Below, one piece after another: positions 1,690 through 57,900 of a DNA stretch of 64,000 bases. The notes below the pieces were generated by a model. That model was not told the DNA's origin. It saw nothing but the letters and a program-made list of their open reading frames with translations, and made no database searches. The position numbers and the translations under genes were made by a program. Position 1 is the stretch's first letter. Each line of letters opens with the position of its first letter. The DNA is from a bacterium (GTDB taxonomy: Bacteria; Patescibacteriota; Minisyncoccia; Minisyncoccales; CG1-02-41-26): positions 57,571-121,570 of the forward strand of contig JAGGXV010000022.1 of assembly GCA_021162885.1 (NCBI GenBank), given 5' to 3'.

Positions 1690-1850
1690 ATGGCTTCTGA
1701 GGGCGAGGCAGGCCTGCTGACCATCGACCTCTCGGAGGCCTGCTGGCTTGGTCCCCGCTGAAAGCGGGGCAGCAGGCCGAGAGTGGAGCGGCAATTTTTC
1801 GCTGGAAAAAATTGACCGCGTCCGATAGGCAGTAGGGCCCTGCCGAGCCC
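1690..1850. repeat. GC-rich MITE-like structured element, copy E1 (homologous to 60684-60812)
   Basis: About 160 nt at roughly 65% GC in a 30% GC genome. Begins gaatggcttctgagggcgaggcagg and ends ctgccgagcccttcttac (terminal inverted repeat). Internal hairpins include ctcggaggcctgctgg...ccccgctgaaagcgggg...cagcaggccgagag. Sits between mraZ and rsmH. Confidence 0.5.
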
Positions 1851-2649: not shown

Positions 2650-4761
2650 TTACTCTTTGAAATATCCTTGAGTTTTGAGTTGAGAAATTTTTCTTTTCAA
2701 ATTCTTTTTTGCTCGGTATTCAGCTATTTCTCTTTTTCTTTTTTCTGTCCATTTATCTAAGGCAATAAATTTCGATTTGAGAATCCAAACTACAGCAAAT
2801 GCTATTCCCAAAGGAAATAAAACGGAATCTAAAATTCTATTGGTAATACCGGTGGGAACTTCAGTAATAATTCCAGCCACCGCTTTTCTTCGAACCCTAA
2901 CTTTACAGCTATCAGTATCGGAAGTTTCCTCGTTATAAGCTCGGGCAGTGTTGATTAGCTCAGTTTGGCCGTAGCCAAATTTTCTTTCAGAAGCGACTTT
3001 TGCTCGAAAGATAATTGTCTTTGACTTTCCCGGCGACAAATCTCCTATATTAATAGCGGTTTTGGTTATATTTTTGGTTTCAGGAACATTATCTATTTCT
3101 AAATTACCTTGATAGATTATTTTTGATGGCAAATCATCTTTTACCTTTACATTTTGAACCACCGCATCACCAGTTGATTTGACTACTATCTTAAAAAGCA
3201 ATTCATCTCCAGGGTTAGCACTTCTGTAGATGTTATACCATTTGCTATCTCCCCGAGACAGATTCTTGACTGATTTTGCAACACTTAACTCTCCTTCACC
3301 TAAACTTTTTACCCTTAAACTCCATTGACAATTTTTATTAGAAGAATCTCCATCAAGCCCGATGACGATATCTGAAGAAGGGGTTCCTTGCCAAGTTTTT
3401 GTCCAATAGTTATTTTCTCTAGAATATATTTTACTGCAGCCAGAACTGTAAATAACCAAATCATTTACATTACAACCTGCTCCTGACCAACTCAATTCAA
3501 CTTTAATTTTTTTACCAGCAGATTCTCGAACTTTGTAATATTTCCAATCGCCATTGTTCAAACAACCATCTCTTGAGTCGCCAATATACATATAACCATC
3601 AGGATTGGAACAGCTTGAAGTGCTTTTTGAACAAACTTCCTCCTCTTCTTGGTTAAGCACTAAAACTTGCATGCTATCAGAATCACTAAGCCCTTTATCG
3701 TCAGTAACAGTTAAGGTACAAGTGTAGGTTCTGTCATAACTGACTTCTGGTGCCGTGAAACTTGGTTGAGCAATATATCTGTTGGAAATATAACCTCCGG
3801 TACAGGACCATCGATAGCTTATTGGGTCTCCGTCAGGATCAGAGCCAGAGCCTTCTAAAGTTATTGAGTGGCTTTCGTAAACCTCTTTATCGGGCCCTGC
3901 AAAAGCCGTCGGTGAGTGATTGATATTATCCACTTTGGTAGTTACGATATTGCTTTCCAATGGCTCTGTTTCAGAGCTATCAATAACCGCTTTGTTGTAA
4001 ATGTAAGTTGTGCCAACCGGAAGACCATCTTTAATTCTAACTTTAAATATCTTAGTGCTCGAATCGCCTGCCTCTAAAGTCCCAATATTCCAGCTGATTT
4101 TTCCCCCAGAAACACTGCCTCCATCATTATCGTAAATATCAAGATAATTCTCGTCGTAATCATCGGATATTACTACCCCAGTGGCTGCGGCTTTCCCAGA
4201 ATTTTTGTAAGATAAAATATAACTTAATATTTCACCTGGTTGAGCCGTACTTTTATCAACCGATTTGCTTATTGAGAGTTCTGGAGTAAAAATTTCTTTA
4301 AGAGAAAAAGTTGCTGATATGTTGCGCACGCTATTTGCTTGGCCCGGCCAGTCATGGGTGTTCCAGCGATGGTCAACTCTAAGTGTATGCACCCCAGCAC
4401 TAAGGTCTCTTTCTCCTAAATTCTCATTTATATAACAATCTGTTCCGCAATCATGTGTTGTGCCAATATATTCTCCGTCAACAAAAAATTTAACTTGTTC
4501 GTGCTTTTGTATCTCGGGGCCATTGCAGTAAGCGTTAAGATAGAGGTCGTATTTTCCCCCATAAGGTAAATTAATGGTGGTTGTTCGCGAATGGATTGGA
4601 TGGTAATCGTCCCAAGCGCAAACTCCTCCTCCAAAATCTGCTGTGTATTCAGCAATATAGCTCTGAGCAAAAGCAAAATTTAAAGGCAAAACTATCCCTA
4701 TTAGAACTAAAGATAACATTTTGCTAGAGATTATTAGTTTGTTTTTGTTTTCGTCAGTCAT
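2650..4761 (-). CDS. large secreted cell-surface protein with DUF11/CARDB-like repeats and a PKD domain, C-terminal TM anchor and charged tail
   Basis: 703 aa. N-terminal signal/TM (LSLVLIGIVLPLNFAFA). PKD-like PDGDPISYRWSCTGG. C-terminus ...EVPTGITNRILDSVLFPLGIAFAVVWIL then KSKF...KRKREIAEYRAKK (sorting-signal-like). Confidence 0.6.
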   Translation of the reverse strand: MTDENKNKLIISSKMLSLVLIGIVLPLNFAFAQSYIAEYTADFGGGVCAWDDYHPIHSRTTTINLPYGGKYDLYLNAYCNGPEIQKHEQVKFFVDGEYIGTTHDCGTDCYINENLGERDLSAGVHTLRVDHRWNTHDWPGQANSVRNISATFSLKEIFTPELSISKSVDKSTAQPGEILSYILSYKNSGKAAATGVVISDDYDENYLDIYDNDGGSVSGGKISWNIGTLEAGDSSTKIFKVRIKDGLPVGTTYIYNKAVIDSSETEPLESNIVTTKVDNINHSPTAFAGPDKEVYESHSITLEGSGSDPDGDPISYRWSCTGGYISNRYIAQPSFTAPEVSYDRTYTCTLTVTDDKGLSDSDSMQVLVLNQEEEEVCSKSTSSCSNPDGYMYIGDSRDGCLNNGDWKYYKVRESAGKKIKVELSWSGAGCNVNDLVIYSSGCSKIYSRENNYWTKTWQGTPSSDIVIGLDGDSSNKNCQWSLRVKSLGEGELSVAKSVKNLSRGDSKWYNIYRSANPGDELLFKIVVKSTGDAVVQNVKVKDDLPSKIIYQGNLEIDNVPETKNITKTAINIGDLSPGKSKTIIFRAKVASERKFGYGQTELINTARAYNEETSDTDSCKVRVRRKAVAGIITEVPTGITNRILDSVLFPLGIAFAVVWILKSKFIALDKWTEKRKREIAEYRAKKNLKRKISQLKTQGYFKE

Positions 4762-6509: not shown

Positions 6510-7673
6510 TTATTCTTCAGGAAAACTCTCTAATAATTTCTTAAGTTCTTCCATTTCTTCTGGAGAAGGAAGTTGTTCGGAAGGATTTTTTTCCGGGGTT
6601 GAGGAAAAAAGTCCAGAACTCTGAAGCGATGATTCTTGAGGAGAAAATCCAAATACTCCCGAGGGTAAAATTTCCTCCAAGGGTTTGAACTCTCCAGGAG
6701 CTTCAATTTTTAACTCTTGATTGAAATCGGAAAATTTAAAATCAATCGCCATTTTTATTTTTGCTTGCTCCGCTTCAGTCTCTTGGAATTGCTCAAACTG
6801 ACTTAAATTTATTTCTTTTTCTCCTTTAATTCTTCTTAACCAACTATTCCTACTTATCCAAACCTCAAAAGTTATCGGTCCAACTTTACTGAAAAACTTC
6901 TCAAAATTTTGAGGCAAACTAACCATTGCTTCTTTCAATTTTTCTTCGTAACTGACTTTCTCTTCCTCGGGCAGATACTTTTTAAGTCTTGGTAAGAACT
7001 CCAAAATCACCTCTTTAACTTCTTCTTTTTTCAAACTAACCAAAAGGTGGTTAACTTTAACTCCATCAATTTCTTCTGTGCCAAAATCTTTTTCAATTTT
7101 GAAAAACTTTCTTCCTTTCAAAGCCTCAACAAACTCTTCAACCATTTCTTTTGTTTTCTCTTTATCGGTAGATTGAGTGGTGGTTGGAATTTTACCTTGT
7201 AATCTTTGGGTTAGCGATTCTTTACTGATTTTGAACCATTGATTTTTAAATTCTTCCAAACCTTGAGCCAGAAAAGGAATAGTTGGTAAGCGGTTAAAAA
7301 CGAAATAGAGGTCTCCCTCAATAGTTCTCAACTCGCCAGCAAAACAAAACTCTATCCCTTCACTTCCCAAAGTTATTTCAAAATCAGAAGAACTTTTCGC
7401 ATTTTTAATATCTAAATTGTTCAAAAAATCAGCAGAAATCTGAAAACTCTCGGTTCTTTCTTCCCCAACTTCCTCAATAGTAAAGTCAATATCTCCCTCA
7501 GTTTTCAAACTCTCCAATTTTATCATTTCAGCCATTGCTCTCTCAACCATTTCTTCTCGAGAAGAAACAAAAGGATTCCAGAGAGGGTTCCAAAGTTGAG
7601 TATAAAGAGCCAGCAATGTTCCCCCAATCGCCACCACGATAACTATTGGTATTAAAATTTTAAGTTTTGGCAT
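6510..7673 (-). CDS. hypothetical secreted/membrane protein, acidic
   Basis: 387 aa, N-terminal TM (ILIPIVIVVAIGGTLLALY). No recognisable domain. Confidence 0.4.
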   Translation of the reverse strand: MPKLKILIPIVIVVAIGGTLLALYTQLWNPLWNPFVSSREEMVERAMAEMIKLESLKTEGDIDFTIEEVGEERTESFQISADFLNNLDIKNAKSSSDFEITLGSEGIEFCFAGELRTIEGDLYFVFNRLPTIPFLAQGLEEFKNQWFKISKESLTQRLQGKIPTTTQSTDKEKTKEMVEEFVEALKGRKFFKIEKDFGTEEIDGVKVNHLLVSLKKEEVKEVILEFLPRLKKYLPEEEKVSYEEKLKEAMVSLPQNFEKFFSKVGPITFEVWISRNSWLRRIKGEKEINLSQFEQFQETEAEQAKIKMAIDFKFSDFNQELKIEAPGEFKPLEEILPSGVFGFSPQESSLQSSGLFSSTPEKNPSEQLPSPEEMEELKKLLESFPEE

Positions 7674-10237: not shown

Positions 10238-10295
10238 ATAGCTTCCCTAACGCGCCAGGGTAGTTGCCCAAGCAACTTAGCCGAGCGTTCTTAAC

Positions 10296-15886: not shown

Positions 15887-15914
15887 TGAAAATTGATAAT
15901 TGAAAATTGAAAAT

Positions 15915-21026: not shown

Positions 21027-21617
21027 TTATTGAACTTCTCTAATCATCTTAAAAATCTTCTCCTTTAATTTTTTATTGGTTACAGTTATATTCAATACTC
21101 CAAATTTACTCTTTTTTCGGTAAGTCCCTTTTCCTTGAGGAGGTATCCTAATTATTTTACCAAGCTGGTCCTTTTTAATTCCAAGATGTTGCTCCCAAAA
21201 TTTTATGGCCTCTTTTTCATTACAATCATTAAATAAAGTTAGATAATATCCAAATTTTTCTTCTTTAGTACCGCATATCTCTACTAAAAATTCCCGAAAT
21301 TTCTTAATGAGTTGAGGGTCACTATTACTCATTCGAACGGCTGTATTATTACTACTTTTATCCCCTTCGCCCCAGTATAAACCTAACCCGATTCCTTTTA
21401 ATAAAATTTCCTCCTTATTGAGCTTATTTTTGATCTCAAATGGATCACCATTTGGATTTCTTTTGACATAAGTAGCTTCGCTCATCGATCTCCGTGGAAT
21501 GCCAAATTTTCTCATCCAATAAACGATTTTTTCATATTTCCACCCTGTTCTATCAGAAATTTCCATCATTGATAAACCACTCTTATATAGTTTTTTTAAT
21601 TTTTCTTTGGGCAACAT
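21027..21617 (-). CDS. free-standing LAGLIDADG-like homing endonuclease with N-terminal HTH, paralog of 62296-62982
   Basis: LYKSGLSMMEISDRTGWKYEKIVYWMRKFGI (HTH). GIGLGLYWGEGDK (LAGLIDADG-like). NSDPQLIKKFREFLVEICG. Shares motif order with the second copy (YWSEG..., NSDPKMILLMLRWFKEIC). Flanked directly by tRNA-Tyr (1 nt away) and tRNA-Thr (17 nt). Confidence 0.5.
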   Translation of the reverse strand: MLPKEKLKKLYKSGLSMMEISDRTGWKYEKIVYWMRKFGIPRRSMSEATYVKRNPNGDPFEIKNKLNKEEILLKGIGLGLYWGEGDKSSNNTAVRMSNSDPQLIKKFREFLVEICGTKEEKFGYYLTLFNDCNEKEAIKFWEQHLGIKKDQLGKIIRIPPQGKGTYRKKSKFGVLNITVTNKKLKEKIFKMIREVQ

Positions 21618-21701
21618 TGGGTGTGAGTGGAGTCGAACCACCTGGGCTCAGAGAGCTATGGTTTTACAGACCATCCCCGCGCCGTACGGGACTACACACC
21701 C
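21618..21701 (-). tRNA. tRNA-Tyr (anticodon GTA), long variable arm
   Basis: Minus strand GGGTGTGTAGTCCCGTACGGCGCGGGGATGGTCTGTAAAACCATAGCTCTCTGAGCCCAGGTGGTTCGACTCCACTCACACCCA. Anticodon stem ATGGT/ACCAT with loop CTGTAAA. Confidence 0.8.
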
Positions 21702-23532: not shown

Positions 23533-23904
23533 ATGTTTACTCTCGATACCAATATTATCATTTATTATCTTAAAGATGAATCTAAAGTATTAAAATTTTT
23601 GCGTGAGGAGATTTTAGCCGGCTCACGCTTTTTTATTTCAACAATCACCGAGGCAGAGCTTTTTGGTTATCCTCAAATTACTTCTGAAGAGGCAATAAGA
23701 ATCAACGAAGTTTTAGCCACTCTTTCAATTATTCCTATCGATTCTCAAATAGCCAGATTGGCTGGTCTTTTCAAAAGAAAATATCAGATTTCTCTTCCTG
23801 ATGCCATTATTGCTGCCACCACCTATCTCACTAATTCCACTCTTGTTACTCGCAATATTCGAGATTTCCAAAAAATCAAAGAAATTAAAGTAAAATCTAT
23901 TTAA
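23533..23904 (+). CDS. vapC: PIN-domain toxin VapC
   Basis: MFTLDTNIIIYYLKDE...TITEAELFGYP...ISLPDAIIAATTYLTNSTLVTRNIRDF with PIN acidic residues. Confidence 0.8.
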   Translation: MFTLDTNIIIYYLKDESKVLKFLREEILAGSRFFISTITEAELFGYPQITSEEAIRINEVLATLSIIPIDSQIARLAGLFKRKYQISLPDAIIAATTYLTNSTLVTRNIRDFQKIKEIKVKSI

Positions 23905-24039
23905 CCCTCATCCAATATTTATTTTCAAAGAACTCACTTACAGATTTCCCGTAAGTTTTTTTTATTCCCAATCTCCTAAATCCAGAATAGTTTACCCCAT
24001 TAGAAATGGAATTTCTAAGCAGAGTAAATTCCAAACTTG

Positions 24040-24215
24040 GGAGATTAGGGAAGGAGGGAGATAAAGTGCGAAAAAACTCTTCCTCCTTCCTTATTATTTC
24101 AACCCTTATCTTTTTACAGCCGGCCAGGGTAACTCCGGCTAACCTTTTAGTTTTAGTTCCTCTTCAGAACTATGGCAGTCGGCTACTGTCAGGAATCTTT
24201 GCCGCCTTTTCTCAC
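24040..24215. repeat. about 175-bp repeat, copy A (shared with 25205-25365), begins with purine/pyrimidine hairpin GGAAGGAGG...CCTCCTTCC
   Basis: gggaaggagggagataaagtgcgaaaaaactcttcctccttccttattatttcaacccttatctttttacagccggccagggtaactccggctaaccttttagttttagttcctcttcagaactatggcagtcggctactgtcaggaatctttgccgc is nearly identical in both copies. Confidence 0.6.
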
Positions 24216-24231
24216 CGTGTTACCACGGGAA

Positions 24232-24729
24232 TCACGGCTTATCGACCCTTTCCAAGGCCGATTTTTTACTGTCCAATTTCTGTCCAACCACTACCGCCCA
24301 TTTCCCGGTTCGAATCGCCGCCTCAATTTCTGCTTGGGGTAGATCCGGAGTAATCAACTTGAACGAATCTTCCGGAATGAAATCCACAAGAGAAAGAGTT
24401 GGTTTCCACTCTCTCAGCCCCATCCAGATATTGCTCCTTTCCTGCCGGGAAAATCCAGAATAAACCCCAGCCCGATCAAATGACCCAGCAGGAATAAAGA
24501 CCTTCACATCCCATTTCTGTTTCAACCCAGCAAGAATTCCTTGAATTGCTACTGGTGTCCTGTCCTCATTCCATGGTTCTGAATTCCACTCTCCTCGAGC
24601 GGTCCAGAATTTCAGCTCCTTATAGATAGATTCCGGTTTCCGGCCAATCTCCTCCGACAACCGATAAACTCTTAACACAAAATTAAGCCCGATAAAAACA
24701 AGAACTTTCATTTTTTCACCTCCTTTCAT
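24232..24729 (-). CDS. hypothetical protein (GC-rich island)
   Basis: 165 aa; GC-rich codon usage unlike the host genes. Confidence 0.35.
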   Translation of the reverse strand: MKGGEKMKVLVFIGLNFVLRVYRLSEEIGRKPESIYKELKFWTARGEWNSEPWNEDRTPVAIQGILAGLKQKWDVKVFIPAGSFDRAGVYSGFSRQERSNIWMGLREWKPTLSLVDFIPEDSFKLITPDLPQAEIEAAIRTGKWAVVVGQKLDSKKSALERVDKP

Positions 24730-24730
24730 T

Positions 24731-25078
24731 TCATTTCTTTAACCAGCCCGGTATCGGGACCTCTCGGCCATCTCGCCGAGAGAGCCCTAACTCTTCAAGC
24801 GTAAACTCAAAGAGTACGGCTCCCCGGGAGATGTAACGAGAACATCTTCCTCGTTGGCGAAGAATCTCCTTCTTCACCAGCTCCCGGGCTTCATCCTTCC
24901 GGCCATCTCGAATCAGCTGGATAACCGGAAGATGCCTCCCCTCCGCGAACTTAATTTGTGGATCACCCGGGGAGTAGGCAATCCACAAATCCGGACGTTT
25001 GAAGGGGTTAACTACATAAACAACCCCTTCATCCGCCTTTCGGCCCCGGGGAGGGCCGAGGGATTTAAAAAATTCCAT
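24731..25078 (-). CDS. hypothetical protein (GC-rich island)
   Basis: 115 aa; tightly packed after previous gene. Confidence 0.35.
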   Translation of the reverse strand: MEFFKSLGPPRGRKADEGVVYVVNPFKRPDLWIAYSPGDPQIKFAEGRHLPVIQLIRDGRKDEARELVKKEILRQRGRCSRYISRGAVLFEFTLEELGLSRRDGREVPIPGWLKK

Positions 25079-25204
25079 TTTATCCTCCTTTCCCTGCCTG
25101 CCATTACTGTACTGGTCAGGTCTTACGGGAAAACTCCGTTTAAATTTTTAATCTACTAACCGTTTAAATTTAGAATCTTACTATTCTAAACTTAAATTGG
25201 TTAG

Positions 25205-25365
25205 GGAAGGAGGAAGATAAAGTGGGAAAAAACTCTTCCTCCTTCCTTATTATTTCAACCCTTATCTTTTTGCAGCCGGCCAGGGCGCTCCGGCTAACCT
25301 TTTAGTTTTAGTTCCTCTTCAGAACTATGGCAGTCGGCTACTGCCAGGAATCTTTGCCGCTCTCT
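25205..25365. repeat. about 165-bp repeat, copy B; followed by about 140 nt not present in copy A before homology resumes at cacggcttatcgaccctttgcc
   Basis: See copy A. Plus-strand ORFs over the two copies are in different frames, so the repeat is likely non-coding. Confidence 0.6.
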
Positions 25366-25527
25366 ACCGGGTTGCTGCTGCCCTCCGATTGGTTACGGTT
25401 GAGACAACCTTGGCCCGCAGTTCCCCGTTGTTTACGGGACTGCCCTTCGGCTTCTCGGGCTTACCTCGCTATCATCCCGAGTCGCCTAGACACACGGCTT
25501 ATCGACCCTTTGCCAGGGCCGGGGTTA

Positions 25528-25794
25528 CTACCTCAAAACCTCCCAATTTGTGACCTCCCAAATTCCATAATGGGAGGCCACATCCCCCACACAGGCTTTC
25601 ACCCATGTGAGGACAGAAAACAAACTCATCTGAGGTAGCAACCCAGCGATCGAGAGTTCCAACTCCCCCTTTTTTTTCGGGGTGAGCTGGACGCCCTCGA
25701 TCGCCAGCTCACTTAAAATGTACTTCCGCAATGATTCCGGAAAAGAATCCGGAAACTCTTTTCCGTCATTGCGGAAAATTTTTATTTTTAACAT
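25528..25794 (-). CDS. hypothetical small protein (island)
   Basis: 88 aa; good RBS ggaggtgagaggATG; C-terminal half overlaps the hairpin-rich region. Confidence 0.25.
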   Translation of the reverse strand: MLKIKIFRNDGKEFPDSFPESLRKYILSELAIEGVQLTPKKKGELELSIAGLLPQMSLFSVLTWVKACVGDVASHYGIWEVTNWEVLR

Positions 25795-26023
25795 CCTCTC
25801 ACCTCCATTTTCTCCCCGTCGGGCTCCAAGGCCTTAATGGGGATTGATGCGAGGCCGCTATTCGCGAAATTAGTGGTAAATTCGCGCAAATTCGCGAATA
25901 ACCACGAACACCGGCCTCGCTTCAATTATCCTAAATTACATCTCCTTTCTCAATTCACTAAAATTTAATTAATGGACTAAGAAGGAAGGTGGAAGAAAAT
26001 GGAAACTTTCTTCCACTTTATTT

Positions 26024-26395
26024 CTATTTCTTTTTGTAATAAAACTTTATCGCTTCTTCCACTATCTCAGGAAACTCCGCCTGAGGGTCTTTATCCTTTT
26101 CTGATTTCCAAATAGCAGCTCCAATTGGACAATAGCCAATTCCATAAACTGCATTTTTGCAGACCTTTGGATATTCAGGAGTGTCATGGATTTTACACCT
26201 GGCCTGAATCCATTTATTCCCTTTTTTGTGCCGTCGAACAAGATACTTACAATAGCTACAATCCGATTTCCAGGATCCATCGGGTAATTCCAAAGAATAA
26301 CTCCAACAACACCAGCCGCATCGGAGACAAATAAATGTCTCTCTTGCCATTTTCAGAAACTCCTTGAATTTCTCATAATCAAACTTTTCTGCCAT
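26024..26395 (-). CDS. YkgJ-family putative zinc/iron-chelating Cys-rich protein (CxxCGxCC, PF03692-like)
   Basis: FICLRCGWCCWSYSLELPDG...CSYCKYLV...ARCKIHDTPEYPKVCKNAVYGIGYCP. Confidence 0.55.
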   Translation of the reverse strand: MAEKFDYEKFKEFLKMARETFICLRCGWCCWSYSLELPDGSWKSDCSYCKYLVRRHKKGNKWIQARCKIHDTPEYPKVCKNAVYGIGYCPIGAAIWKSEKDKDPQAEFPEIVEEAIKFYYKKK

Positions 26396-26720
26396 TTTTT
26401 ACTCCTTATAATTTTTTTTTCAAAAGAACTATTTTTTACTCACCCTCCTTACTCAACTCCTTATTTCAGTATAAGGAACTAAGTATGAAGGGGGAAGAAA
26501 AGTAATGAGTAACTTTCTTCCCCTTTTTTTCTAATTGTCCGGGATGTCGGCCGACTTCGAAGGCGCCGACTCTGGCCCTCCCTTAAGGCACGGCTCACCA
26601 AAGGGTTCGCCGTGGAGGTTATTCGCGTAGGACCTTATTTCGGGTTACCCCTTATTCGTGTCCTACCTTATTTCCCTCACCCCAGGCACTAACCCGGCCT
26701 GGCGGGTAATTGCAGGGCGG

Positions 26721-27041
26721 TTACACCTTTACCACATCTCCTACCTTAACGGTAGGAGAGTGGCTTTCCACTACCACCCCACCCAATCTTGGGTCAAAAC
26801 ATCCGACCCAAGTAGTGGGGTGGTAGTGGTGAACCAGCGTGGCAAAAAGCCACACTGGTCCCCGCCCCGAGAGGATGACCCCTTTTTGAGGGTTGACCTC
26901 CGGGGCGGATTTCACCACCCCTTCGAGCTCTTGGGGAGTTAAACTCCCCTCGAGCTCAAACCTGACAAGCGTGAATTGCTCACGCTCATCAGGAAAAAAT
27001 TTCATTTTTCTCACCTCCTTTCCCGAATCCGCAATTTTCAT
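26721..27041 (-). CDS. Csx3/Crn3-like protein (CRISPR-associated cyclic-oligoadenylate ring nuclease / deadenylase family), standalone
   Basis: FTLVRFELEGSLTPQELEGVVKSAPEVNPQKGVILSGRGPVWLFATLVHHYHPTTWVGCFDPRLGGVVVESHSPTVKVGDVV matches the recalled Csx3 core (GV.ISGRGP.WL...LVH..H...WV..FDPRLG..VVV.SH). Alternative start M13 at about 27005. Confidence 0.5.
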   Translation of the reverse strand: MKIADSGKEVRKMKFFPDEREQFTLVRFELEGSLTPQELEGVVKSAPEVNPQKGVILSGRGPVWLFATLVHHYHPTTWVGCFDPRLGGVVVESHSPTVKVGDVVKV

Positions 27042-27092
27042 TCCGAACTCGGGAAATTAGGGAAACCCGAGAGTGTAAAGGTTTCCCTTATT

Positions 27093-27713
27093 TTATTTTT
27101 TATTATCACCTCCTTTCCAAACGACAGCATAGGGAGTGAAAAAGTAATCTGCTTCCCATCCGCCGTCGTAATTAATGTCCCCAAACCTTTTCTTCCCCAT
27201 ATAGGCAATATGCCTCAGGGGATTAAATTTTTCCGGTTTGGGTTTTATCAGCTTCCGCCCTATCCAATTCTGTCCACAAATCCACCGGTCAGCTTCTACC
27301 CAACTGTAAGCCACAACTTCAGCCCAGTTCACTTCCACAATCTGCCAGTTCACTTCCGGGTACTCTTCCTTTACCTTAGGAAAATCAGCTGCTTTTATTG
27401 CCCAGCCCCAGACTCCAGTATCTAGTACCCGCTCCGCTTGAGAATTATCGTAATTAGGATTCCGAATGAACAACAAATCCATCAGGGGACAAATCACATC
27501 TTTCCAGCCAGCAGTGGGTAGTTTCTTCCAGTTGCAGATCGGCATTCCTAACTTGCCACTCTTTTCTCCACAAATCACACATTTCCAATACACCGTTCTC
27601 CGATCAGCACAGTCCCGATAGCATCCTGCATTAACCCACGGACATTCCCCATACCTTAATGCCTTTAAGACATGGGTATGGGTTACCCCAACTTTTTTTT
27701 TCATCTTTCTCAC
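27093..27713 (-). CDS. hypothetical Cys-rich protein (island)
   Basis: 206 aa. N-terminus GECPWVNAGCYRDCADRRTVYWKCVICGEKSGKLGMPICNWKK; Trp-rich C-terminal domain. Confidence 0.4.
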   Translation of the reverse strand: MRKMKKKVGVTHTHVLKALRYGECPWVNAGCYRDCADRRTVYWKCVICGEKSGKLGMPICNWKKLPTAGWKDVICPLMDLLFIRNPNYDNSQAERVLDTGVWGWAIKAADFPKVKEEYPEVNWQIVEVNWAEVVAYSWVEADRWICGQNWIGRKLIKPKPEKFNPLRHIAYMGKKRFGDINYDGGWEADYFFTPYAVVWKGGDNKK

Positions 27714-27784
27714 CTCCCTCCAGCCAACTATTTCTAATTAACTAAAGGGAGGCGAGAAATTCCATATTCAATTTTCAAACAACA

Positions 27785-27900
27785 TCCAGTCTCCTAAACC
27801 CAGAATAATTAACATTTCGGCGCGATCGTGCCCATTTGTTAATGATTATTTCTTGTTTTAATTTTGTAACAAATCTCTGCGATCGTAAGATTTTGTTACA
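27785..27900. promoter_or_regulatory. two tandem palindromic operators with GCGATCG cores upstream of the 27713 gene
   Basis: O1 TTAACATTTCGGCGCGATCGTGCCCATTTGTTAA is a copy of R1. O2 is TGTAACAAATCTCTGCGATCGTAAGATTTTGTTACA. Confidence 0.45.
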
Positions 27901-27962
27901 CTTTATTCCGAACTTGGGAGATTGGGGAACTTAATAAGTTGTGCCTCCTTTCAGTTCCCCGG

Positions 27963-28346
27963 TTATCTATTGTTGAGAGTGCGGCGAGTCCAGTGGGGCT
28001 TCCGAAATTTTTTTACCGCTGGAAAATTCTGGAGAATTTTTTCCACTCGAGCGAGAAACTCTTTCACCAGTTCCTGCCCATTTCCATTTCGAAAAGCAAC
28101 TTCAAGCTCTGTTCCGCTCATCCACATCGGGATAATTCCTCTCTGAAGCGAATCCATTCCTTTTCCATTGAGAATCGCTTTTCTATTCACTGAGAATTGA
28201 ATCGGAAGCCAACTTCCATCGTGTCGAACCCAGAAATCTACCTTGAATTTTTCGTCTTCTGCTCGAGTAGCCCGTCGAACCTCAGTCCCGTTGCGATCCA
28301 GAAGCTCAACCATCCATTCCTCGGCCTTCAAACCGAACTTTTTCAT
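27963..28346 (-). CDS. hypothetical protein (island)
   Basis: 127 aa, no recognisable domain. Confidence 0.35.
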   Translation of the reverse strand: MKKFGLKAEEWMVELLDRNGTEVRRATRAEDEKFKVDFWVRHDGSWLPIQFSVNRKAILNGKGMDSLQRGIIPMWMSGTELEVAFRNGNGQELVKEFLARVEKILQNFPAVKKFRKPHWTRRTLNNR

Positions 28347-28468
28347 CCTTTCTCACCTCCCTTTCTTCTTTCTCAATCCCCTACCTTGTAAGGGACTAAG
28401 AAAGAAAAGGGATGGACTTTGAATTGAGTGCTTCTCTCCAGCCATCCCTTCTGGAGAGAGTTATTGAG

Positions 28469-29083
28469 TTACCATTTTCCGTTGAAAGGGTACACTTTCT
28501 CCACCCGGACATGAGAGAATAACTTAGTATTCTCTAGTCGATCCAAGGTATCCATTAGAATTTCAACCGGTTTCTTTAGGGGTTCCTTCCCAATCCAGTC
28601 ATTACCCAATTCTACAATCGCCCGCACGTAATAGGATTCCGGAGACCAAGTTTGCAAGCCCTTGGCTTCTAATCTATCCGCTGCTTCCTGATCTATCCCG
28701 ACAGACAAATTCATAAGCAAATTGCCATCGGAATTACAATATAGAAACCACTTGAAAGGATTCCCTCTATAGAATCCAGTGCCATATCCGAACCTTCTCG
28801 CCCATGCATGTTTTCCGTCCTCTTCATAAGAACTCTCGAACCTTGTCTCGCACAACTGGAAAAAACTCTCCTGTGCCTTCAATGTATACAGTTCTCCCCG
28901 CAACACCCCAGCTTCATTTTTAATCTTTACCACTTCATTTTCCAGTTCTATTCTTGCAGTTTCCAGAATCTCCACCTTTCCCTTCCATCTCTCCACTTCT
29001 TTCTGAAGAGAAGAGATATAGAATGCTCCGACTGCCACAACGACAGCCAATCCAACTGCCAGACCAATCATACCCTTAGTCAT
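28469..29083 (-). CDS. hypothetical membrane-anchored coiled-coil protein (first gene after the structured leader)
   Basis: 204 aa. N-terminal TM MIGLAVGLAVVVAVGAFYI, coiled coil, then a W/Y-rich globular domain. RBS aggaggaaaggtATG. Confidence 0.4.
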   Translation of the reverse strand: MTKGMIGLAVGLAVVVAVGAFYISSLQKEVERWKGKVEILETARIELENEVVKIKNEAGVLRGELYTLKAQESFFQLCETRFESSYEEDGKHAWARRFGYGTGFYRGNPFKWFLYCNSDGNLLMNLSVGIDQEAADRLEAKGLQTWSPESYYVRAIVELGNDWIGKEPLKKPVEILMDTLDRLENTKLFSHVRVEKVYPFNGKW

Positions 29084-29099
29084 ACCTTTCCTCCTAATT

Positions 29100-29955
29100 T
29101 TTATTCTCCTTCTATTTTAGCAAGGAGTGCACCGCGCACTTTCGGCCAACAACTTACTTTTGGACAGCAAGTGTTGGTTGGCGCGTCCGCCGATGAAAGT
29201 GCACGGGCGCACTCATTACTAAGGTTGAGAGGGGCGGAGGCGAGCGAAATTCACTTTTCTTCTCCTCGGAGAGAAAAGTCAACCTCACTCCTTATTTACG
29301 TCCCTTAGCGGGAAACCTCACATTACATTTACCCCTGATTGCCGCAACCTGTCTTTTAAGGTACTGACTCTCTCCTCTGAGAGAAGGATGGAGGAGAATT
29401 GATTAGGAACTGAGGAAGATTGAGGCCAAAATTTTTAATCTCCTAAGGGAGGGGCTTGCCTTCTTCCTCAAAGCCATTTTATTGCCTACCGAGTAAGGGC
29501 ACACAAAGCCACAAACCAAGCCAGGCATTTTAGCTCACATTCCGCTTTCAGCGAAATGACTCTCTCCTCCATCCTTCTCCCCCAGAAGTTTTTCAACCTC
29601 CGGAAGAGTTCCTTATTAAGTTGGAAGGTGCTTTCTCCTCAAAATTCTTTGAATTTTGAGGACCCCACTTTCGCCAGCGACTCCTTCCGCTTTTAGCGGG
29701 AGTCGTGCTCGCTGGCGGCCAAAGGAGACTTATCTCCTTTGGAATTCTTTTTTTTAAACAAACAGGCGGCTCTCGGAGAGAGCCGCCTGTTTGCTAAATT
29801 TTCGTTATAAAGCTCTATAACGAACGGCTTTTTTTCCGCCACGCTTTTACCGCGCGACGACTCTCTCCTCTGCCCCGTTAGATACGAAGTTATCTAACTG
29901 GGGTCTTTTTTTTTATTTTTATTTAATTTGGAAGAGCTTTTTTATTTTCTCCAGA
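29100..29955 (-). ncRNA. about 850-nt hairpin-rich untranslated leader / candidate ncRNA downstream of the triple promoter
   Basis: No ORF of 60 aa or more on the minus strand. Strong hairpins: aaacaggcggctctc..gagccgcctgttt; cgccagcgagcacgactcccgctaaaagcggaaggagtcgctggcg; ccaaaggagataagtctcctttgg; cctcaaaattcaaagaattttgagg. GAGGAGAGAGTC recurs three times; inverted copies lie about 190 bp apart. Confidence 0.3.
29873..29920 (+). terminator. plus-strand intrinsic-terminator-like hairpin plus T9 run; on the minus strand it sits just downstream of the P1 transcription start
   Basis: ccccgttagatacgaagttatctaactggggtcttttttttt. Confidence 0.35.
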
Positions 29956-29962
29956 CACTTAC

Positions 29963-29991
29963 ATTATAGCATATCGTTAAATTCTTGTCAA
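29963..29991 (-). promoter_or_regulatory. perfect consensus sigma70 promoter P1 (TTGACA-17-TATAAT)
   Basis: Minus strand ccTCTTGACAagaatttaacgatatgcTATAATgta. Confidence 0.7.
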
Positions 29992-30030
29992 GAGGTTTGA
30001 AGGAATTTTCATCTTTTTGCAACCGCTTTA

Positions 30031-30059
30031 ATTATAGTATATTTTCATATTCTTGTCAA
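30031..30059 (-). promoter_or_regulatory. perfect consensus sigma70 promoter P2 (TTGACA-17-TATAAT)
   Basis: Minus strand TTGACAagaatatgaaaatatacTATAATtaa. Confidence 0.7.
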
Positions 30060-30111
30060 GGACATTTGCATTCTTTCAACAAATTTCTTCTCACACTCTC
30101 AGACATTTTTA

Positions 30112-30140
30112 ATTATAGCAAATTGAATTAGTTTTGTCAA
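30112..30140 (-). promoter_or_regulatory. perfect consensus sigma70 promoter P3 (TTGACA-17-TATAAT)
   Basis: Minus strand TTGACAaaactaattcaatttgcTATAATtaa. Confidence 0.7.
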
Positions 30141-30159
30141 GAGCTAAACAACTTATTTA

Positions 30160-31380: not shown

Positions 31381-31535
31381 TTTCAACTTACAATTTTCAA
31401 CTTACAATTTTCAATTTTCAATCAAGCTCCAATTTTCCAATTTTCAATGAAATTCACTCCGAGATTAGCAAAGAACTGTTTGAAAATTGGGTAATTGAAA
31501 ATTCATTGATAATTGGTCATTGAAAATTGATAATT
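31381..31535. repeat. intergenic inverted-repeat element built from ATTTTCA / TGAAAAT heptamer repeats (family seen at many intergenic sites)
   Basis: Left arm (t)tttcaacttacaattttcaa... Right arm ...tgaaaattgggtaattgaaaattcattgataattggtcattgaaaattga. Can fold into a long imperfect hairpin. Confidence 0.6.
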
Positions 31536-31539
31536 TAAT

Positions 31540-32259
31540 CTACCAATTTTTAACTTTTAAAGCTTCTCGAGCTGCTGCTTCTTCTGCTTCCTGTTTCGAA
31601 CTTCCCTCTCCTTCAGCAACCAATTCCTCTCCCAAAAAAACTCCAACCACAAAATGTTTGGCATGGTCAGGCCCCCATTCTTTCAAAACTTTATAGGTTG
31701 GAGTAATTCTCACTCTCTCTTGAGCCTCTTCTTGAAATCTCGATTTGGCATCTCGCCAACCTCCTTCTTTTAAAATCTTGGATAGCTGGTTAATCAAATG
31801 AGTTTCTATAAATTCCCGAACCTTTCCCAACCCTTGGTCAAGATAAAAAGCCCCTAAAAATGCCTCAAAAGTGTTTGCTAAAATATATTCTCTGGCTTTC
31901 CCGGTATCTTTTGCTTCACCGCGAGAAAGCAAAAGATATTCTTCAAAACCAAGTTTCTTTGCCGTTCCAGCTAAACTTTGAGCGTTAACCAAGGCCGCTC
32001 GCCAATTGGTCAATTCACCCTCAGACCTTTTTGGATATTTCTGATAAAGATATTCTGTAACAATTAGTTCTAAAACCGCATCTCCTAAAAACTCCAATCT
32101 TTCATTGTGGGGTAGCGAAAACTTTGGGTTTTCGTTTAAATAAGACCTATGGACGAATGCTTGTTTTAATAAATCCTTATTTTTAAATTCAATGCTTAAT
32201 TTCTTTTCAAGTCTTTTGAAATCTGACACAAAATTTCTGTAACGTCCAACATATAACAC
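31540..32259 (-). CDS. rnc: ribonuclease III
   Basis: ERLEFLGDAVLELIVTEYLYQKYP signature plus C-terminal dsRBD. Confidence 0.9.
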   Translation of the reverse strand: MLYVGRYRNFVSDFKRLEKKLSIEFKNKDLLKQAFVHRSYLNENPKFSLPHNERLEFLGDAVLELIVTEYLYQKYPKRSEGELTNWRAALVNAQSLAGTAKKLGFEEYLLLSRGEAKDTGKAREYILANTFEAFLGAFYLDQGLGKVREFIETHLINQLSKILKEGGWRDAKSRFQEEAQERVRITPTYKVLKEWGPDHAKHFVVGVFLGEELVAEGEGSSKQEAEEAAAREALKVKNW

Positions 32260-33324: not shown

Positions 33325-33450
33325 CTAATTTTCAATTTACAATTTACAATTTTCAATCAAATCCCAATTTTCAATTTTCAATTATCGTTTGAAAATTAAA
33401 TCATTAAAAATTCATTGAAAATTGGTCATTGAAAATTGAGAATTTCCTTC
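33325..33450. repeat. intergenic heptamer inverted-repeat element (ATTTTCA...TGAAAAT)
   Basis: ttgctaattttcaatttacaatttacaattttcaatcaaatcccaattttcaattttcaattatcgtttgaaaattaaatcattaaaaattcattgaaaattggtcattgaaaattgagaattt. Confidence 0.6.
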
Positions 33451-37983: not shown

Positions 37984-38039
37984 AATTTCTTCTCCCACCC
38001 TACGCTCGCTTTCGCTCGCGTGGATAATTGAAGAAACCG

Positions 38040-38118
38040 AAGAGAAATAATTTTCAATTTTCAATTATCAATTTTCAATTTTCATTGAATTCCCAATTTT
38101 CAATTTTCAAACTTAAAA
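38040..38118. repeat. ATTTTCA heptamer repeat array between dnaE and thrS
   Basis: aattttcaattttcaattatcaattttcaattttcattgaattcccaattttcaattttcaaac. Confidence 0.6.
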
Positions 38119-38119
38119 T

Positions 38120-45040: not shown

Positions 45041-46144
45041 TTATAAATAAATCTTTTCAATAAGATATTTTGTTCCAGAAACGTTTAACTTTTGGAAAAA
45101 GAATCGGAATTTCTCTTCCAATTCCTCGCAAATTTTATCAATGTTTTTTTGAGGAATACTCCAGATATCTTTTTTGAAAGCACCTAAAGCTCTTTTTCTA
45201 AATTTGTAAATAAATTGTTCCTCGGAATCGGACGGTTTTTTCTTTTTCCAGAATTTCTCTTTTAACCAAGAATATATTTTCTCTCTCAAATCTTTTGGAA
45301 AATAATCAGAATCGTAAATTATATTTTGAAATTGAGTGGCCAAGTGAATTTCGCAACAGCCGGTTTTTGGAAACCTCTCAAAATATTTTTCAGGAAGTGT
45401 TGAAGCTCCATGCTGGACAGCCCCGGCCATACCATACTTTTTAGCTTCTCTTGATAATTCTGTCAAGGTGTCAAAATCAGCTTCAATCTGTTTAAGATGA
45501 CCCGAAGGAAGAACAATCCCGCCGTGTGAGGTACCGGTTTGAACCGCAACTTTAATTATTCCTTTAACTCCTTTATATTTCGAGATTTCGCTTTGATAAG
45601 TTTTAGCAAACTCTTTGAATTCTTCTGAAGTGGTATTTTTACCCCCTATCTTACTTATTTCCCCGCCAATTGTAATTTCGATTGACTTTGGTTGTAAATT
45701 TCTTATAAAAAAAGTTAAACTTGCTGTTTTTTTAGCATTTTCTTTTAAATTATCAAAAACTGAGCCATCAATATCGATATTAAAAAAACCTGCCTTAATT
45801 GATTCTTTGATTAGATTTTTTAAATTTTTTGAGTTTGCTTTAAAATGATCTCCCTGAAAAAAAAGAGGCCCCTCAAATTTTTCTTTAAGGGCCGCCTCAG
45901 TCACATTTTTAACATATTCTTTTGGAGATTGATCGGTATAATTTATTTCCGATTGAGCAAGTTCTAAAATAAAAGCTCCCGCCTCTTCTTTTTTTGCTGC
46001 TCTAAAAAGGGCTCGAGCAACATCGAAAGTTAAAGTTCTTATATTAAAAGCAGGAACAGTAAATCCTTTGAATTCTCCTTTGGCTATTTTTTCATAAAGT
46101 TTTTGCGTTGAAGTTAAAACCATAGCTTCCAAACAAACTTCCAC
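45041..46144 (-). CDS. class II aldolase family protein (FBA/tagatose-bisphosphate aldolase-like)
   Basis: FNIRTLTFDVARALFRAAKKEEAGAFILELAQSE and VQTGTSHGG / AVQHGASTLP resemble class II FBA motifs; weak. Confidence 0.45.
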   Translation of the reverse strand: MEVCLEAMVLTSTQKLYEKIAKGEFKGFTVPAFNIRTLTFDVARALFRAAKKEEAGAFILELAQSEINYTDQSPKEYVKNVTEAALKEKFEGPLFFQGDHFKANSKNLKNLIKESIKAGFFNIDIDGSVFDNLKENAKKTASLTFFIRNLQPKSIEITIGGEISKIGGKNTTSEEFKEFAKTYQSEISKYKGVKGIIKVAVQTGTSHGGIVLPSGHLKQIEADFDTLTELSREAKKYGMAGAVQHGASTLPEKYFERFPKTGCCEIHLATQFQNIIYDSDYFPKDLREKIYSWLKEKFWKKKKPSDSEEQFIYKFRKRALGAFKKDIWSIPQKNIDKICEELEEKFRFFFQKLNVSGTKYLIEKIYL

Positions 46145-46149
46145 ACCCC

Positions 46150-46182
46150 CCCCCGCAGCGTGCCCGCTGCGGGGGGTCGTGC
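46150..46182. repeat. isolated GC-rich perfect hairpin
   Basis: ccccccgcagcgtgcccgctgcgggggg between gatB stop and next start. Confidence 0.5.
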
Positions 46183-46184
46183 AT

Positions 46185-54461: not shown

Positions 54462-54567
54462 ATTTCTTCCCCCTCGCTCCCCTTCGCTTTGCTCAGGGTC
54501 GCTCGGCTCAGTCAAAATAAAATATTTCTGCGTTTTTTGTTTGTGTTTTTATTTTTAGTTTTTTATT

Positions 54568-54902: not shown

Positions 54903-57900
54903 CTATATATCCAAGTTCTTTACTTTTTTAGCATGAACCTGAATAAACTTTTTCCTCGGCAAAACTTCTTTCCCCATCAAAATGTCAAAAATATGATCAG
55001 CGGCTTTGGCGTCTTCAATAGTTACTTGAAGTAATATTCGATTCTCTGGATTCATAGTCGTTTCCCAGAGTTCTTCGGGGTTCATCTCTCCCAACCCCTT
55101 GTAGCGCTGAATATTAATACTCTTTTCTTCTTTCTTCGTCTTTTTAATATCAGATAAAATCTCTTGTTTGTCTTGCTCAGTATAAGCATATTCTGTTCTT
55201 TTCCCTACTTGGATTTTATATAAGGGTGGTTGAGCAATATAAAGGTATCCTTTTTCAACCACTTCTCTGAAATAGCGGAAAAACAAAGTTAAAAGAAGCG
55301 TCCTTATATGGGCACCATCGGTATTCTTAAGAAGAACTCCACCAGGACTGGCAATAAAATTCTGATCTCCTAAAACAGAAAGGTCATAGACAAATTTGTC
55401 TTTAATATTTTTTAGCTTTTTAATGCTTTTTACTTTAAGTCCGACGAAATCTTGAGAAATGGGTTGGATATATTTTCCAATAACTTTTTTATAATTTACT
55501 TCTTTGAGAAGATACATTTCTAATCTTTCAGCATCTTTATGATCCTGCCAAACATTTTTAGTTTTCCATAAATAATCCACTGTAGATATTGATAAATCAT
55601 AAGATTTAAAATTAGACCTGATAAGCTTCCCGTCTTTGCTGTAATGGTTTTTGGTTTGATTAACACCATAAGCTGGAAATATTCCCCATTGCCGAAAAAT
55701 AGTAAGTATTCCTTCAATCAATCTCTGCGAAGACAAACGCCAGCCATAAATTGCTTTAGTTTTACTGGTTTTTTTACTTGTCCAAACTATAATAAAGCCA
55801 TCGCTCTGAAGCAATCCTTTAAGGAGTGCCGTTTGAATTTCTCTTTTTGTATTGAAAAATATATCTGGAATAAACTTCTCATTTGCTCTCTTGCCCAGTA
55901 CTCCAAGCTTTGCAAGAAGTAACCGAAACTCAAAAGAATGAAAGTGTAACTGAATATTATTCTCTTTCTTATAATCTAAAATAGGTTTAGCATTAAACTT
56001 TTCTTTTATAATCCGGGAAAGATTTTTAATATATTTACTTTCTTTTTCTTTGTTTAGAGAAAATGCAAACCTATTTGGATTCTTATCTTCGGGTATTGCA
56101 CAGCCATCTCCTAAAAACCAGCCAATTAAATACGCTAAATCTTTATCTAGCTTAAATTCAGTTTTAATTTTGTGAGTATGATTTCCGTAATAAAATTTGG
56201 CGGATTCAGGAAATTTATTTCCTTTCCAATCTTCTAAAGGAATATAAACATTACAATTGATTCGATAAAAATCCTGATTAATTTGGTTTAAATAATTTCG
56301 GAGGAGAGCGAATCTTGGCATTACATTGTCAAATTTCTCCTCCCATTGCTGGATTACTCCTCTTCCTACTTTAACTAAATTCTCCATTTTTAATCTTGAA
56401 ATTTGGTTTTTTACTCTTTCTTGTTTTAACTTCTGAAAATAATATTTTGGAATCTCTATCCAAGCAGAAGAAGGAATTTTTTTTAGTACTTCCTTTTTCA
56501 CCTTTACAGAAACATTTTTTGGTTTTTCCTTTAAAAGAACACTTTTTAAATCAATAATAAAATCTTTATCTTGACGCGGAAATAATCTTGGAAATATTAA
56601 GAGATCTCCCCTCTTAATATCTTTTGTTTTCTTAGTTCTAATCTTTTTGTTTTCATAAACATAAACGCTATGACAATCAGTTACTTTAACAGGGTAACCA
56701 CAATAAGTTTTAATTTCATATAAATCTGTCCTTAAGGGATGACGGATCGTCTGTAAAATTTCTTTAAGTTCTAGTTTTTTTGTCTTCAGATTGCAAGTTA
56801 AAACCTTGTATTTTGTGGTATCGTCGCAATTTTCAATAAACTCGCCGGCTTGGGTGCAAAAGAAACTCTTCTTTTCTTTGTCATAAAGGAAAATTGAAGT
56901 ATCTCCGGTTATTGAGTCCGCGTCAGTCATTATTATAATTCGGTGATACCGCAGTTTGTTTATGTCAAAATCTTGAGCGATGGCCGTACCCAAAGCAATG
57001 ATTAAAGATTTTAATTCTTGGGAAGCTAAAATTTTATCTAACCTCGCTCTTTCAACATTCAAAATCTTTCCTTTTAAAGGCAGAATTGCTTGAAACGTTC
57101 TGTCTCTGGCTTGTTTTCCACTGCCACCAGCCGAATCACCTTCAACAATATAAAGCTCAGAGTCCTCAGGATTTTTAGAAGAGCAATCAGCTAATTTTCC
57201 GGGCAAAGTTAAACCTTCCAAAACTCCTTTTCTTAAAACTGTAGTTCTGGCTGCCTTGGCCGCTCTCCGAGCTCTGGCTGCTAAAAGACAATTCTCAATA
57301 ATCGCTTTGGCATCTTGGGGATTTTTTTCCAGAAAATCAGCTAAACCTTCTGAGAAAACGCTATCAACAACGGTCTTGGCTTCAGGGTTACCAAGTTTTG
57401 CCTTGGTCTGACCTTCAAATTGAGGTTCTTTTAATTTTACCGAAATTGCTGCCACCAATCCCTCTCTAACATCTCCCCCACTAAAATTTTCCTCTTTTTC
57501 GGAAAGGTAGCCATTTTTTCTGGCATAATCATTCAGGACTCGAGTCAAAGCAGTCCGGAAACCAGTCAAATGAGTCCCACCCTCGCCTGTAAAAATATTA
57601 TTGACAAACCCTTCTTCAAGAGCCTCCATCTCTTTAGCATATTGAAAAGCGACCTCAACTAAAATTCCTTCTTTCTCTCCTCGAGTATAACAAATGTTCT
57701 CGTGACGAACTTCCCCGTCCCCAATTAAATATTTAATGTAAGAGCGAAGTCCTCCTTCAAAATAAAAGTTATATAAAGTTGGTGGAGATTCTCGCTCGTC
57801 CCGAACACTTATTTTAACTCCCGGAGTTAGATAGGCCTGTTGACGGAGATGATTTAAAATCCTTTCCGAGTTAAAGTAAATACTCCTGAAAATCTCTGGA

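Follow-up and report, generated by a model that had tools for sequence, protein, structure and literature searches.

A 64-kb stretch of contig JAGGXV010000022.1 (hereafter the window), which belongs to a Patescibacteria metagenome-assembled genome, carries two GC-rich hairpin sequences, E1 and E2, in the spacers between mraZ and rsmH and between pheS and pheT, respectively. Both are sequences inserted into stop/start junctions rather than a conserved regulator, since the same junctions are 0-30 nt long and AT-rich in nearly all relatives sampled. They are kin to each other and to further units in the window, possess a conserved hairpin, belong to a family in which units nest, are constrained at their ends and lack the features of terminators and known RNAs. 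The explanation that we favour, with moderate confidence, is that E1 and E2 represent a low-copy, non-autonomous family of small non-coding GC-rich hairpin insertion elements that are co-transcribed with their host operons. It also appears somewhat probable that this family is confined to one Patescibacteria sub-lineage near Nealsonbacteria and Gribaldobacteria; the best relatives of the MraZ protein are found in metagenome-assembled genomes of these two groups. The regularities of the family are unusual and comprise a placement at junctions only, an orientation in the sense direction only, a constant loop and a 3' tail.

Both spacers, measuring 203 nt (mraZ-rsmH) and 129 nt (pheS-pheT) from stop to start, are wholly filled. 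E1 occupies approximately positions 1687-1852 and E2 positions 60684-60807, both on the minus strand (-), and the flanking genes were identified by Pfam as mraZ (1854-2285, -, stop codon 1854-1856) and rsmH (769-1650, -) 5' and 3' of E1, and as pheS (60813-61865, -, stop codon 60813-60815) and pheT (58584-60683, -, ATG 60681-60683) 5' and 3' of E2. This bears out the placement given in an earlier reading of the DNA made without database searches (the sequence-only reading). Since the flanking genes are all on the minus strand, E1 and E2 lie on the transcribed strand within their operons, again as that reading had it; almost all genes in the vicinity are in fact encoded on the minus strand. The listing of open reading frames (ORFs) runs rsmH into E1. 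No reading frame is conserved between the element copies, the conserved peptides being merely about 8 amino acids long.

The core of E1 (1699-1852, -) starts 2 nt past the mraZ stop codon and is a branched hairpin of 154 nt with 64% GC, and that of E2 (60698-60807, -) starts 6 nt past the pheS stop codon and is a hairpin of 110 nt with 60% GC. These GC contents (0.64 and 0.60) agree with the 60-65% claimed earlier, while the background, put at 30%, is 36% (35.9% for the window). Read on the transcribed strand, the terminal helix of E1 is AAGGGC-UC-GGCAGG ... CCUGCC-UC-GCCCUC (-), preceded by UAA-G, and that of E2 is (U)AAGGAC-UC-GGCAG ... CUGCC-UU-GUCCUU (-), preceded by UGA-UAAAG. A repeat finder returned inverted-repeat arms at 1700-1712 and 1839-1851 in E1 (13 nt, 85% complementary) and at 60697-60710 and 60794-60807 in E2 (14 nt, 86% complementary). 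The core is followed by a 3' tail, which in E1 is AGAAGCCAUUCG (1687-1698, -), conserved in E2 and in the related element L099e described below, and in E2 is AGAAGCUAUUCGCC (60684-60697, -), directly adjoining the ATG of pheT. An AT-rich linker of 36 nt (1651-1686, -), not present in empty sites, joins E1 to rsmH and contains AUUCGU three times as well as GGAG right before the ATG. The AUUCGU repeats echo the end of the element tail (CCAUUCGUA, AAAUUCGUA, AUUCGUG), and could be the footprint of repeated events or of slippage.

For the blocks AAGGRCTCGGCAG, GAGAGGYCGATGG and CCTGCCTYGYCCTYAGAAGCYATTCG, E1 and E2 are precisely the two sites of occurrence, and the 3' block of 26 nt common to both had no match in 100 shuffles. 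A covariance model (R1) of the subfamily to which both belong (subfamily A, below) scores E1 at 120.6 bits and E2 at 121.8 bits; with filters off it matches only these two in the window, and in 1.2 Mb of relatives it matches only L099e. E1 folds at -86 kcal/mol (z = -4.8 versus shuffles) and E2 at -48 kcal/mol (z = -1.3), so that the GC hairpins ascribed to both elements are supported for E1 on its own, whereas the E2 value is not significant alone.

To compare occupied and empty sites, the mraZ-rsmH spacer was measured in about 85 related loci, of which species-representative genomes contributed 80. In most loci it is 0-30 nt long and AT-rich, and nearly all of the longer spacers are likewise AT-rich. 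The short AT-rich spacers include those of relatives in which MraZ is 90-94% identical (L002, L005-8, L013, L014 and L115). GC-rich fills occur only in the window (203 nt), in the species represented by L009-11 and L111-114 (164 nt, element L009e) and in L042 (92 nt), the last being unrelated in sequence to the elements. One of these loci, L111 (ENA ERZ27247988 k141_208091), is a fold-back assembly in which the mraZ-murE region is inverted-repeated around position ~10,600. The pheS-pheT spacer measures 4-6 nt in the four next-closest genomes (L105, L106/107, L108 and L110, PheS 76-80% identical), whereas L099 (PheS 82% identical) carries an element, L099e, at the exact same position. L099e is 78% identical to E1 and 75% identical to E2, and E2 is probably orthologous with it. 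Related genomes thus provide the empty sites by which an insertion can be recognized, the junctions being empty in almost all of them, and a pattern of only two copies conserved with their flanking genes throughout the lineage was not observed, though E2 is shared with L099. As regards orthology between E1 and L009e, the identities of MraZ and RsmH order the relatives in conflicting ways. An 18-nt hairpin is identical, although inverted, between E1 and L009e, and is the sole blastn match of all elements against 1.14 Mb of relatives. When the 3' block was used to scan a metagenome collection that did not include the source sample, 13 matches were obtained, one true (L099) and 12 by chance in unrelated, mostly GC-richer DNA; a scan of viral contigs with the same block gave none. 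The comparison of empty and filled sites revealed no clean target-site duplication, a feature also looked for at the suggestion of the sequence-only reading: nothing clear was seen beyond an AG on the flanks, which is conserved with the element and may belong to it.

Related elements and the terminal hairpin

Further relatives were found by listing all spacers of the window that contain a GC-rich patch and then reading them. The outer unit of E3 (2531-2646, -; GAGGC-UC-GGGCA ... UGCUC-UUG-GCCUC; z = -4.75) starts 4 nt past the stop codon (2650-2652) of a DUF11 gene and has TTAG on both flanks, and an inner unit (2569-2608, -; GGGGC-UC-GGGU ... ACCC-UC-GUCCUU) is nested in its apex. A degenerate relative had been suspected at 2590-2640, and this indeed proved to be the inner unit of the nested hairpin. 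An intrinsic terminator (2491-2510) follows E3, and the site 3' of the DUF11 gene in L002 is without E3. The mini-element E4 (10238-10295, -) fills the spacer between a gene for a 132-aa hypothetical protein (h132) and a ClpC-like gene. Its ends, CGCUCGG.UA.GUU ... AACUACCCU.GCG, match the ends of the L009 element, its tail AGGGAAGCUAU lies directly before the ATG of the ClpC-like gene, and we assign it to the family with moderate confidence. The same junction measures 1-15 nt in L014, L017, L034 and L037 and 3 nt in L111. In other species it holds GC hairpins that are unrelated (L030, ~4420-4472, CUCCGGGAUGGCUUCCCGGAG; L068, ~7050-7170). E5 (46124-46184, -), located in the spacer between gatB and an aldolase gene, has a perfect 12-bp GC hairpin 8 nt past the gatB stop codon (z = -6.0) and GGAAGCU directly before the aldolase ATG, and lacks the GCUCGG end; it is a possible relative of the E1/E2 family. 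A weaker candidate, which is on the plus strand and sense to its genes, lies between dnaE and thrS (37984-38060, +).

The elements fall into two subfamilies, A (E1, E2 and L099e) and B (E3, E4 and L009e), which have in common the GCUCGG 5' end, a split terminal helix and an internal segment consisting of a hairpin followed by ACCAWGC. The motif GCTCGG occurs at four sites in about 450 nt of elements, versus 20 in the whole window. The elements are about 40-155 nt long with a GC content of 53-64%, compared to 36% in the window, and the 64 kb hold two copies of family A plus two to three related units, so the two copies first noticed have company, E3 and E4 among it. Every copy seen is sense to its host genes, the dnaE-thrS candidate included, and every copy starts 0-8 nt past a stop codon. 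In E1, E2, L099e, E3 and E4 the terminal helix is bordered directly by AG at either end, and UAAG or AAG is present in several empty sites. Most elements end in the tail RGAAGCYAU, for which there are seven matches where 2.5 are expected, four of the seven at element junctions, and in E2, L099e, E4 and E5 a purine-rich tail (AGAAGC or GGAAGC) lies 3-9 nt before the next AUG. A structural scan of 1.15 Mb for a stem-UC/UY-stem arrangement retrieved, among GC-rich matches, the known copies only (background 22, versus 2-11 in shuffles).

GC-rich elements of a different type, GAGAGGGGUCGGGAG...CUCCCGUGUAGGA...GAGCGAC, fill the secE-nusG and nusG-rplK spacers of L108 (6628-6773 and 7312-7490), and an element of the GAGAGGGGUCGGGAG type precedes mraZ in L014 (9862-9994). 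A comparable patch rich in GAGCGA closes the secE-nusG spacer of the window (54462-54530, -), so that members of this clade seem often to carry structured insertions where the genes of an operon meet.

The terminal helices of six units were aligned in register, for which the two arms were concatenated synthetically and one extra loop base of the E3 outer unit was removed. In this alignment 90% of the cells are paired and eight of the 12 pairs show compensatory changes, a result reached by none of 500 shuffles, while slid registers pair at only 39-56%; the comparison of copies for covariation, proposed earlier, was therefore positive. The two closing pairs and the loop, 5' UC and 3' UC or UU, are invariant, and the flanking stems covary. 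A terminal inverted repeat, as claimed, is accordingly present, at 13-14 nt instead of about 15 bp, and in no copy is it perfect, since TC faces TC or TT in a 2x2 mismatch of pyrimidines that breaks it throughout. RNAalifold, run on the three family-A sequences, supports the terminal helix only and not the interior. Covariation cannot separate an RNA structure from a DNA inverted repeat, because both strands fold alike and repeat ends would also covary. What is conserved is consequently a hairpin with a strand-specific asymmetry, and not specifically an RNA. Between the window and L099, 78 of 94 positions of the element ends (5' 26 nt and 3' 68 nt) are identical (83%), compared to 42 of 82 four-fold sites of pheS (51%; p ~1e-10), and both E2 and L099e stay above 60% GC. 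What maintains the element ends is thus either selection or a recent event of copying or gene conversion. Between copies the interior varies greatly, with deletions, insertions and nesting.

Known RNAs, enzymes and other features of the window

Rfam gave no relevant match at the E1 and E2 loci, neither at gathering thresholds nor at E <= 10, and returned only tRNAs and a group I intron for the window. No promoter-like or terminator-like site and no U-tract was found in or directly after E1 and E2, and the only terminator near E1 and E3 is that at 2491-2510, 3' of E3. A role as terminator or attenuator, the latter suggested by the sequence-only reading, was rejected as no U-tract follows either element. 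Likewise, a Shine-Dalgarno function of the 5' arm (AAGGA) was rejected, as the arm is paired and more than 100 nt away from the AUG. Neither a Y1 nor a RAYT gene is present in the window, and its nuclease-type genes are limited to LAGLIDADG-like ORFs and a GyrB intein. The latter, with a LAGLIDADG endonuclease domain, accounts for the length of GyrB (54903-58442, -), which is 1179 aa versus 650-655 aa in relatives. The group I intron (Rfam, 69 bits; 63100-63347, -) lies within a 425-nt spacer and is adjoined by an ORF with a helix-turn-helix domain (62296-62982, -) that by eye resembles a homing endonuclease. A similar-looking ORF (21027-21617, -) is found directly 3' of tRNA-Tyr (21618-21701).

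A stretch of 1.07 kb without genes (29084-30159, -) carries three tandem promoter-like repeats, TTGACAAG...TATAAT, at 29959-30141, and then three modules starting with GAGGAGAGAGUC, with GC hairpins at 29354-29377, 29546-29569 and 29847-29870; no Rfam family matched this stretch. An island at 23900-29100 has a raised GC content and encodes small ORFs on both strands, of which none has a Pfam hit and many possess strong GGAGG ribosome-binding sites. The genome differs elsewhere in this respect, and the island probably represents foreign or prophage-like DNA. A PIN-domain ORF lies at 23533-23904. Short AT-rich repeats (TTGAAAATTGAAAAT / AATTTTCAATTTTCA) occur in many spacers 5' of genes and once inside rsmH (1441-1470, 15887-15914, 31400-31530, 33330-33425 and 38040-38119).

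Predicted consequences and competing explanations

As insertion elements, E1 and E2 would be mobilised in trans, now or recently, by an enzyme whose gene lies elsewhere. Their AG flanks and their mismatch, which is conserved and strand-specific, recall the features through which mitochondrial GC clusters and hairpin-recognising mobile DNA are recognised. The elements are probably co-transcribed with their operons, as they lie inside them, are sense-oriented and have no terminator features, and this would place a very stable stem-loop in the polycistronic mRNA. Such a stem-loop would part two cistrons that formerly abutted. Abutting genes are probably translationally coupled in this genome, as a Shine-Dalgarno motif is missing from most of its genes and also from the empty junctions of relatives. 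The unpaired purine-rich tail may in turn act as a landing site for re-initiation at the next AUG, which would explain, through selection, why only sense copies survive before essential genes. The hairpin may also be cut by, or shielded from, RNases such as RNase III, the gene of which (rnc, 31540-32259, -) is considered here as context only, as a candidate cutter of long hairpins once transcribed. Its presence in the window makes the RNA processing suggested earlier plausible.

Several observations speak against an insertion family with these effects. The proposed ribosome-binding role of the tail is weakened by the lack of a Shine-Dalgarno motif in most genes, the sense and antisense strands of the elements fold about equally well, and the effects on transcription, processing and translation are consequences predicted from the DNA. 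There is no unambiguous target-site duplication, as the AG...AG flanks could be element sequence, and the ORFs of the window include no transposase, recombinase or reverse transcriptase. Family A has just two copies in 64 kb, and none in the mraZ regions of 80 other genomes. Furthermore, the mraZ-rsmH junction is filled by different subfamilies in two lineages, which implies either that certain sites are preferred or that an insertion of long standing was precisely lost several times. The junction-only placement and sense-only orientation are seen in a handful of copies, for which selection after random insertion is an alternative.

The element may instead be a lineage-specific, domesticated cis-acting RNA module, that is an intercistronic stabiliser, an RNase III site or a translation-decoupling hairpin with a re-initiation tail, its duplication being incidental. 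The fact that all copies are sense and start 0-8 nt past a stop codon is in line with this, as are the better conservation of the ends than of neutral sites (83% versus 51%), the GC content kept up against an AT-biased background, the tail at a fixed distance from the AUG in E2, L099e and E4, and the presence of an RNase III gene. Nevertheless, we hold a regulatory module to be unlikely, given that the same junctions lack the element in nearly all relatives, close ones included, that the host operons are functionally unrelated, that the interior varies so extensively through deletions, insertions and nesting, and that there is nothing to decouple at E3, which sits between the last gene and a terminator.

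Somewhat speculative is a stronger form of the insertion hypothesis, to which we give a low probability. According to this, the element is a junction-seeking mobile cassette whose strand-specific hairpin has the constant UC/UY loop as its recognition mark and which integrates past stop codons at AG, in the direction of transcription, bringing its own re-initiation tail. Such a cassette could settle at tightly coupled stop/start junctions, even in essential operons, and leave the host alive, and would be a bacterial counterpart of mitochondrial GC clusters, possibly moved via RNA or homing-type endonucleases.

The orientation may also derive from the replication strand and not from transcription. 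In that case the element would be a single-strand DNA hairpin whose strand-specific reader is either an HUH/Y1 enzyme (of the REP/RAYT or IS200/IS605 kind) or a tyrosine recombinase (attC-like), with the TC/TY mismatch as the protein handle. An invariant mismatch between covarying stems, the lack of a classic target duplication, the occurrence of nested insertion and the location of all copies on one strand, which is also that of nearly all genes in the region, would all be accommodated. Yet no such enzyme is encoded in the window, the element is one large hairpin and not two subterminal ones, and neither a conserved tetranucleotide of the GTAG type nor the R and L boxes of attC are present. 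Moreover, the plus-strand candidate between dnaE and thrS (37984-38060) likewise points the way of its genes, so that orientation is more likely set relative to transcription than to replication. We consequently regard single-strand reading as improbable.

It is very improbable that the elements are independent small RNA genes, riboswitches or ribozymes lying between genes by happenstance. Structured RNAs usually stand out in an AT-rich genome by their high GC and a strong predicted fold, but there is no Rfam match at E <= 10 and no promoter or terminator of their own, the interior is not conserved between copies, close relatives are without them, and the two downstream genes, rsmH and pheT, have nothing in common. 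Chance similarity or an assembly artefact, for which nothing beyond the small copy number argues, can practically be dismissed in view of the 26-nt shared block without a single chance match, the identical E1 in a separate JGI contig and the origin of L099e and L009e from other samples and assemblies.

Mobile DNA is thought to be scarce in the small, compact genomes of Patescibacteria. If E1 and E2 are insertion elements, such genomes still acquire and tolerate selfish or semi-domesticated DNA. The junctions with and without an element form natural pairs in which the effect of a hairpin on translational coupling, mRNA processing and gene stoichiometry may be followed. In practical terms, operon spacers are interrupted by the elements, which can lead gene callers and structured-RNA screens astray.

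Comparison with known systems

The sequence-only reading had called E1 and E2 MITE-like, and this holds in so far as they are inserted DNA with terminal inverted repeats, while the missing clear target-site duplication, the absence of a transposase from the window, the GC-richness and the single orientation do not fit. In terms of the definition of a miniature inverted-repeat transposable element (MITE) given in PMC10969869 (section 2.1), the elements (41-154 nt, no conserved frame) are shorter than 500 bp and lack an ORF, and their repeats (13-14 nt, 85-86% complementary) are within the range of about 4-30 bp, though always broken by the TC/TY mismatch. They also have AT-rich intergenic targets and vary in presence and absence among relatives. 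As to flanking direct repeats, AG is found on both sides of E1, E2, L099e, E3 and E4 and TTAG on both sides of E3, and these may be element bases. MITEs are typically AT-rich, whereas the elements have 53-64% GC, and no cognate autonomous insertion sequence with the same inverted repeats is encoded within the 64-kb window.

For consequences at the RNA level the closest systems are the Correia elements (CREE) of Neisseria and the ERIC sequences of enterobacteria (PMC2649163, PMC10969869, PMC2229807). Like these, the elements are about 100-150 bp long, have terminal inverted repeats and no ORF, and lie in intergenic positions inside transcription units, where the transcript is a long hairpin. 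Correia transcripts are cut by RNase III (PMC2649163, PMC10969869), and in their case the hairpin, as a substrate of this enzyme, alters the expression of neighbouring genes. Correia elements are further set apart by 26-bp repeats, a TA duplication, an IHF site and ends that create promoters, and they number hundreds of copies, which lie in both orientations, whereas the elements described here are GC-rich, with interrupted repeats of 13-14 nt, no TA duplication, few copies and one orientation.

REP, BIME and REPIN sequences are likewise extragenic imperfect palindromes, often located just past stop codons inside operons, with strand-specific hairpins thought to be handled single-stranded. REP elements are also known as mRNA stabilisers. 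Their units of 20-40 nt, conserved 5' tetranucleotide of the GTAG type, high abundance and RAYT gene have no counterpart here: single arms are not palindromic, the GTAG motif is lacking and no Y1 gene is found in the window. The Rickettsia palindromic elements (RPE) are comparable as hairpin-forming insertions in a reduced, AT-rich bacterial genome that are tolerated in essential genes or operons. RPE are nonetheless placed in frame within coding sequence and translated, whereas the present elements are confined to the space from a stop codon to the following start codon.

No description of such elements in Patescibacteria was found in the searchable literature, and the 2024 MITE review makes no mention of this group; the E1/E2 family is a real, undescribed family of a known type of element. 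In behaviour, it comes closest to the GC clusters of yeast mitochondria (e.g. GC42) and to the hairpin repeats of sponge and fungal mitochondrial DNA (PMC4478555, PMC2800124). The yeast clusters are GC-rich hairpins in AT-rich DNA, AG-flanked and with constrained stems, which merge and shuffle (PMC4478555). The present elements are, in the same way, short GC-rich palindromic hairpins in the spacers of a compact AT-rich genome, present or absent among close relatives, with stems conserved well above the neutral rate, with units that merge, shuffle and nest, with AG on both flanks and with no enzyme of their own. The setting is also similar, as this genome too carries group I introns and LAGLIDADG-type genes. 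The differences are that the host is bacterial and not an organelle, that the elements are longer and branched (110-155 nt versus about 40 nt), that an internal loop of constant pyrimidines and a 3' tail are part of them, that all copies are sense and right after stop codons, that copy number appears low, and that the AG flanks may here be element and not duplication. If the favoured explanation is correct, bacteria would have in this family a parallel to the mobile GC clusters that have long been a puzzle in mitochondria.

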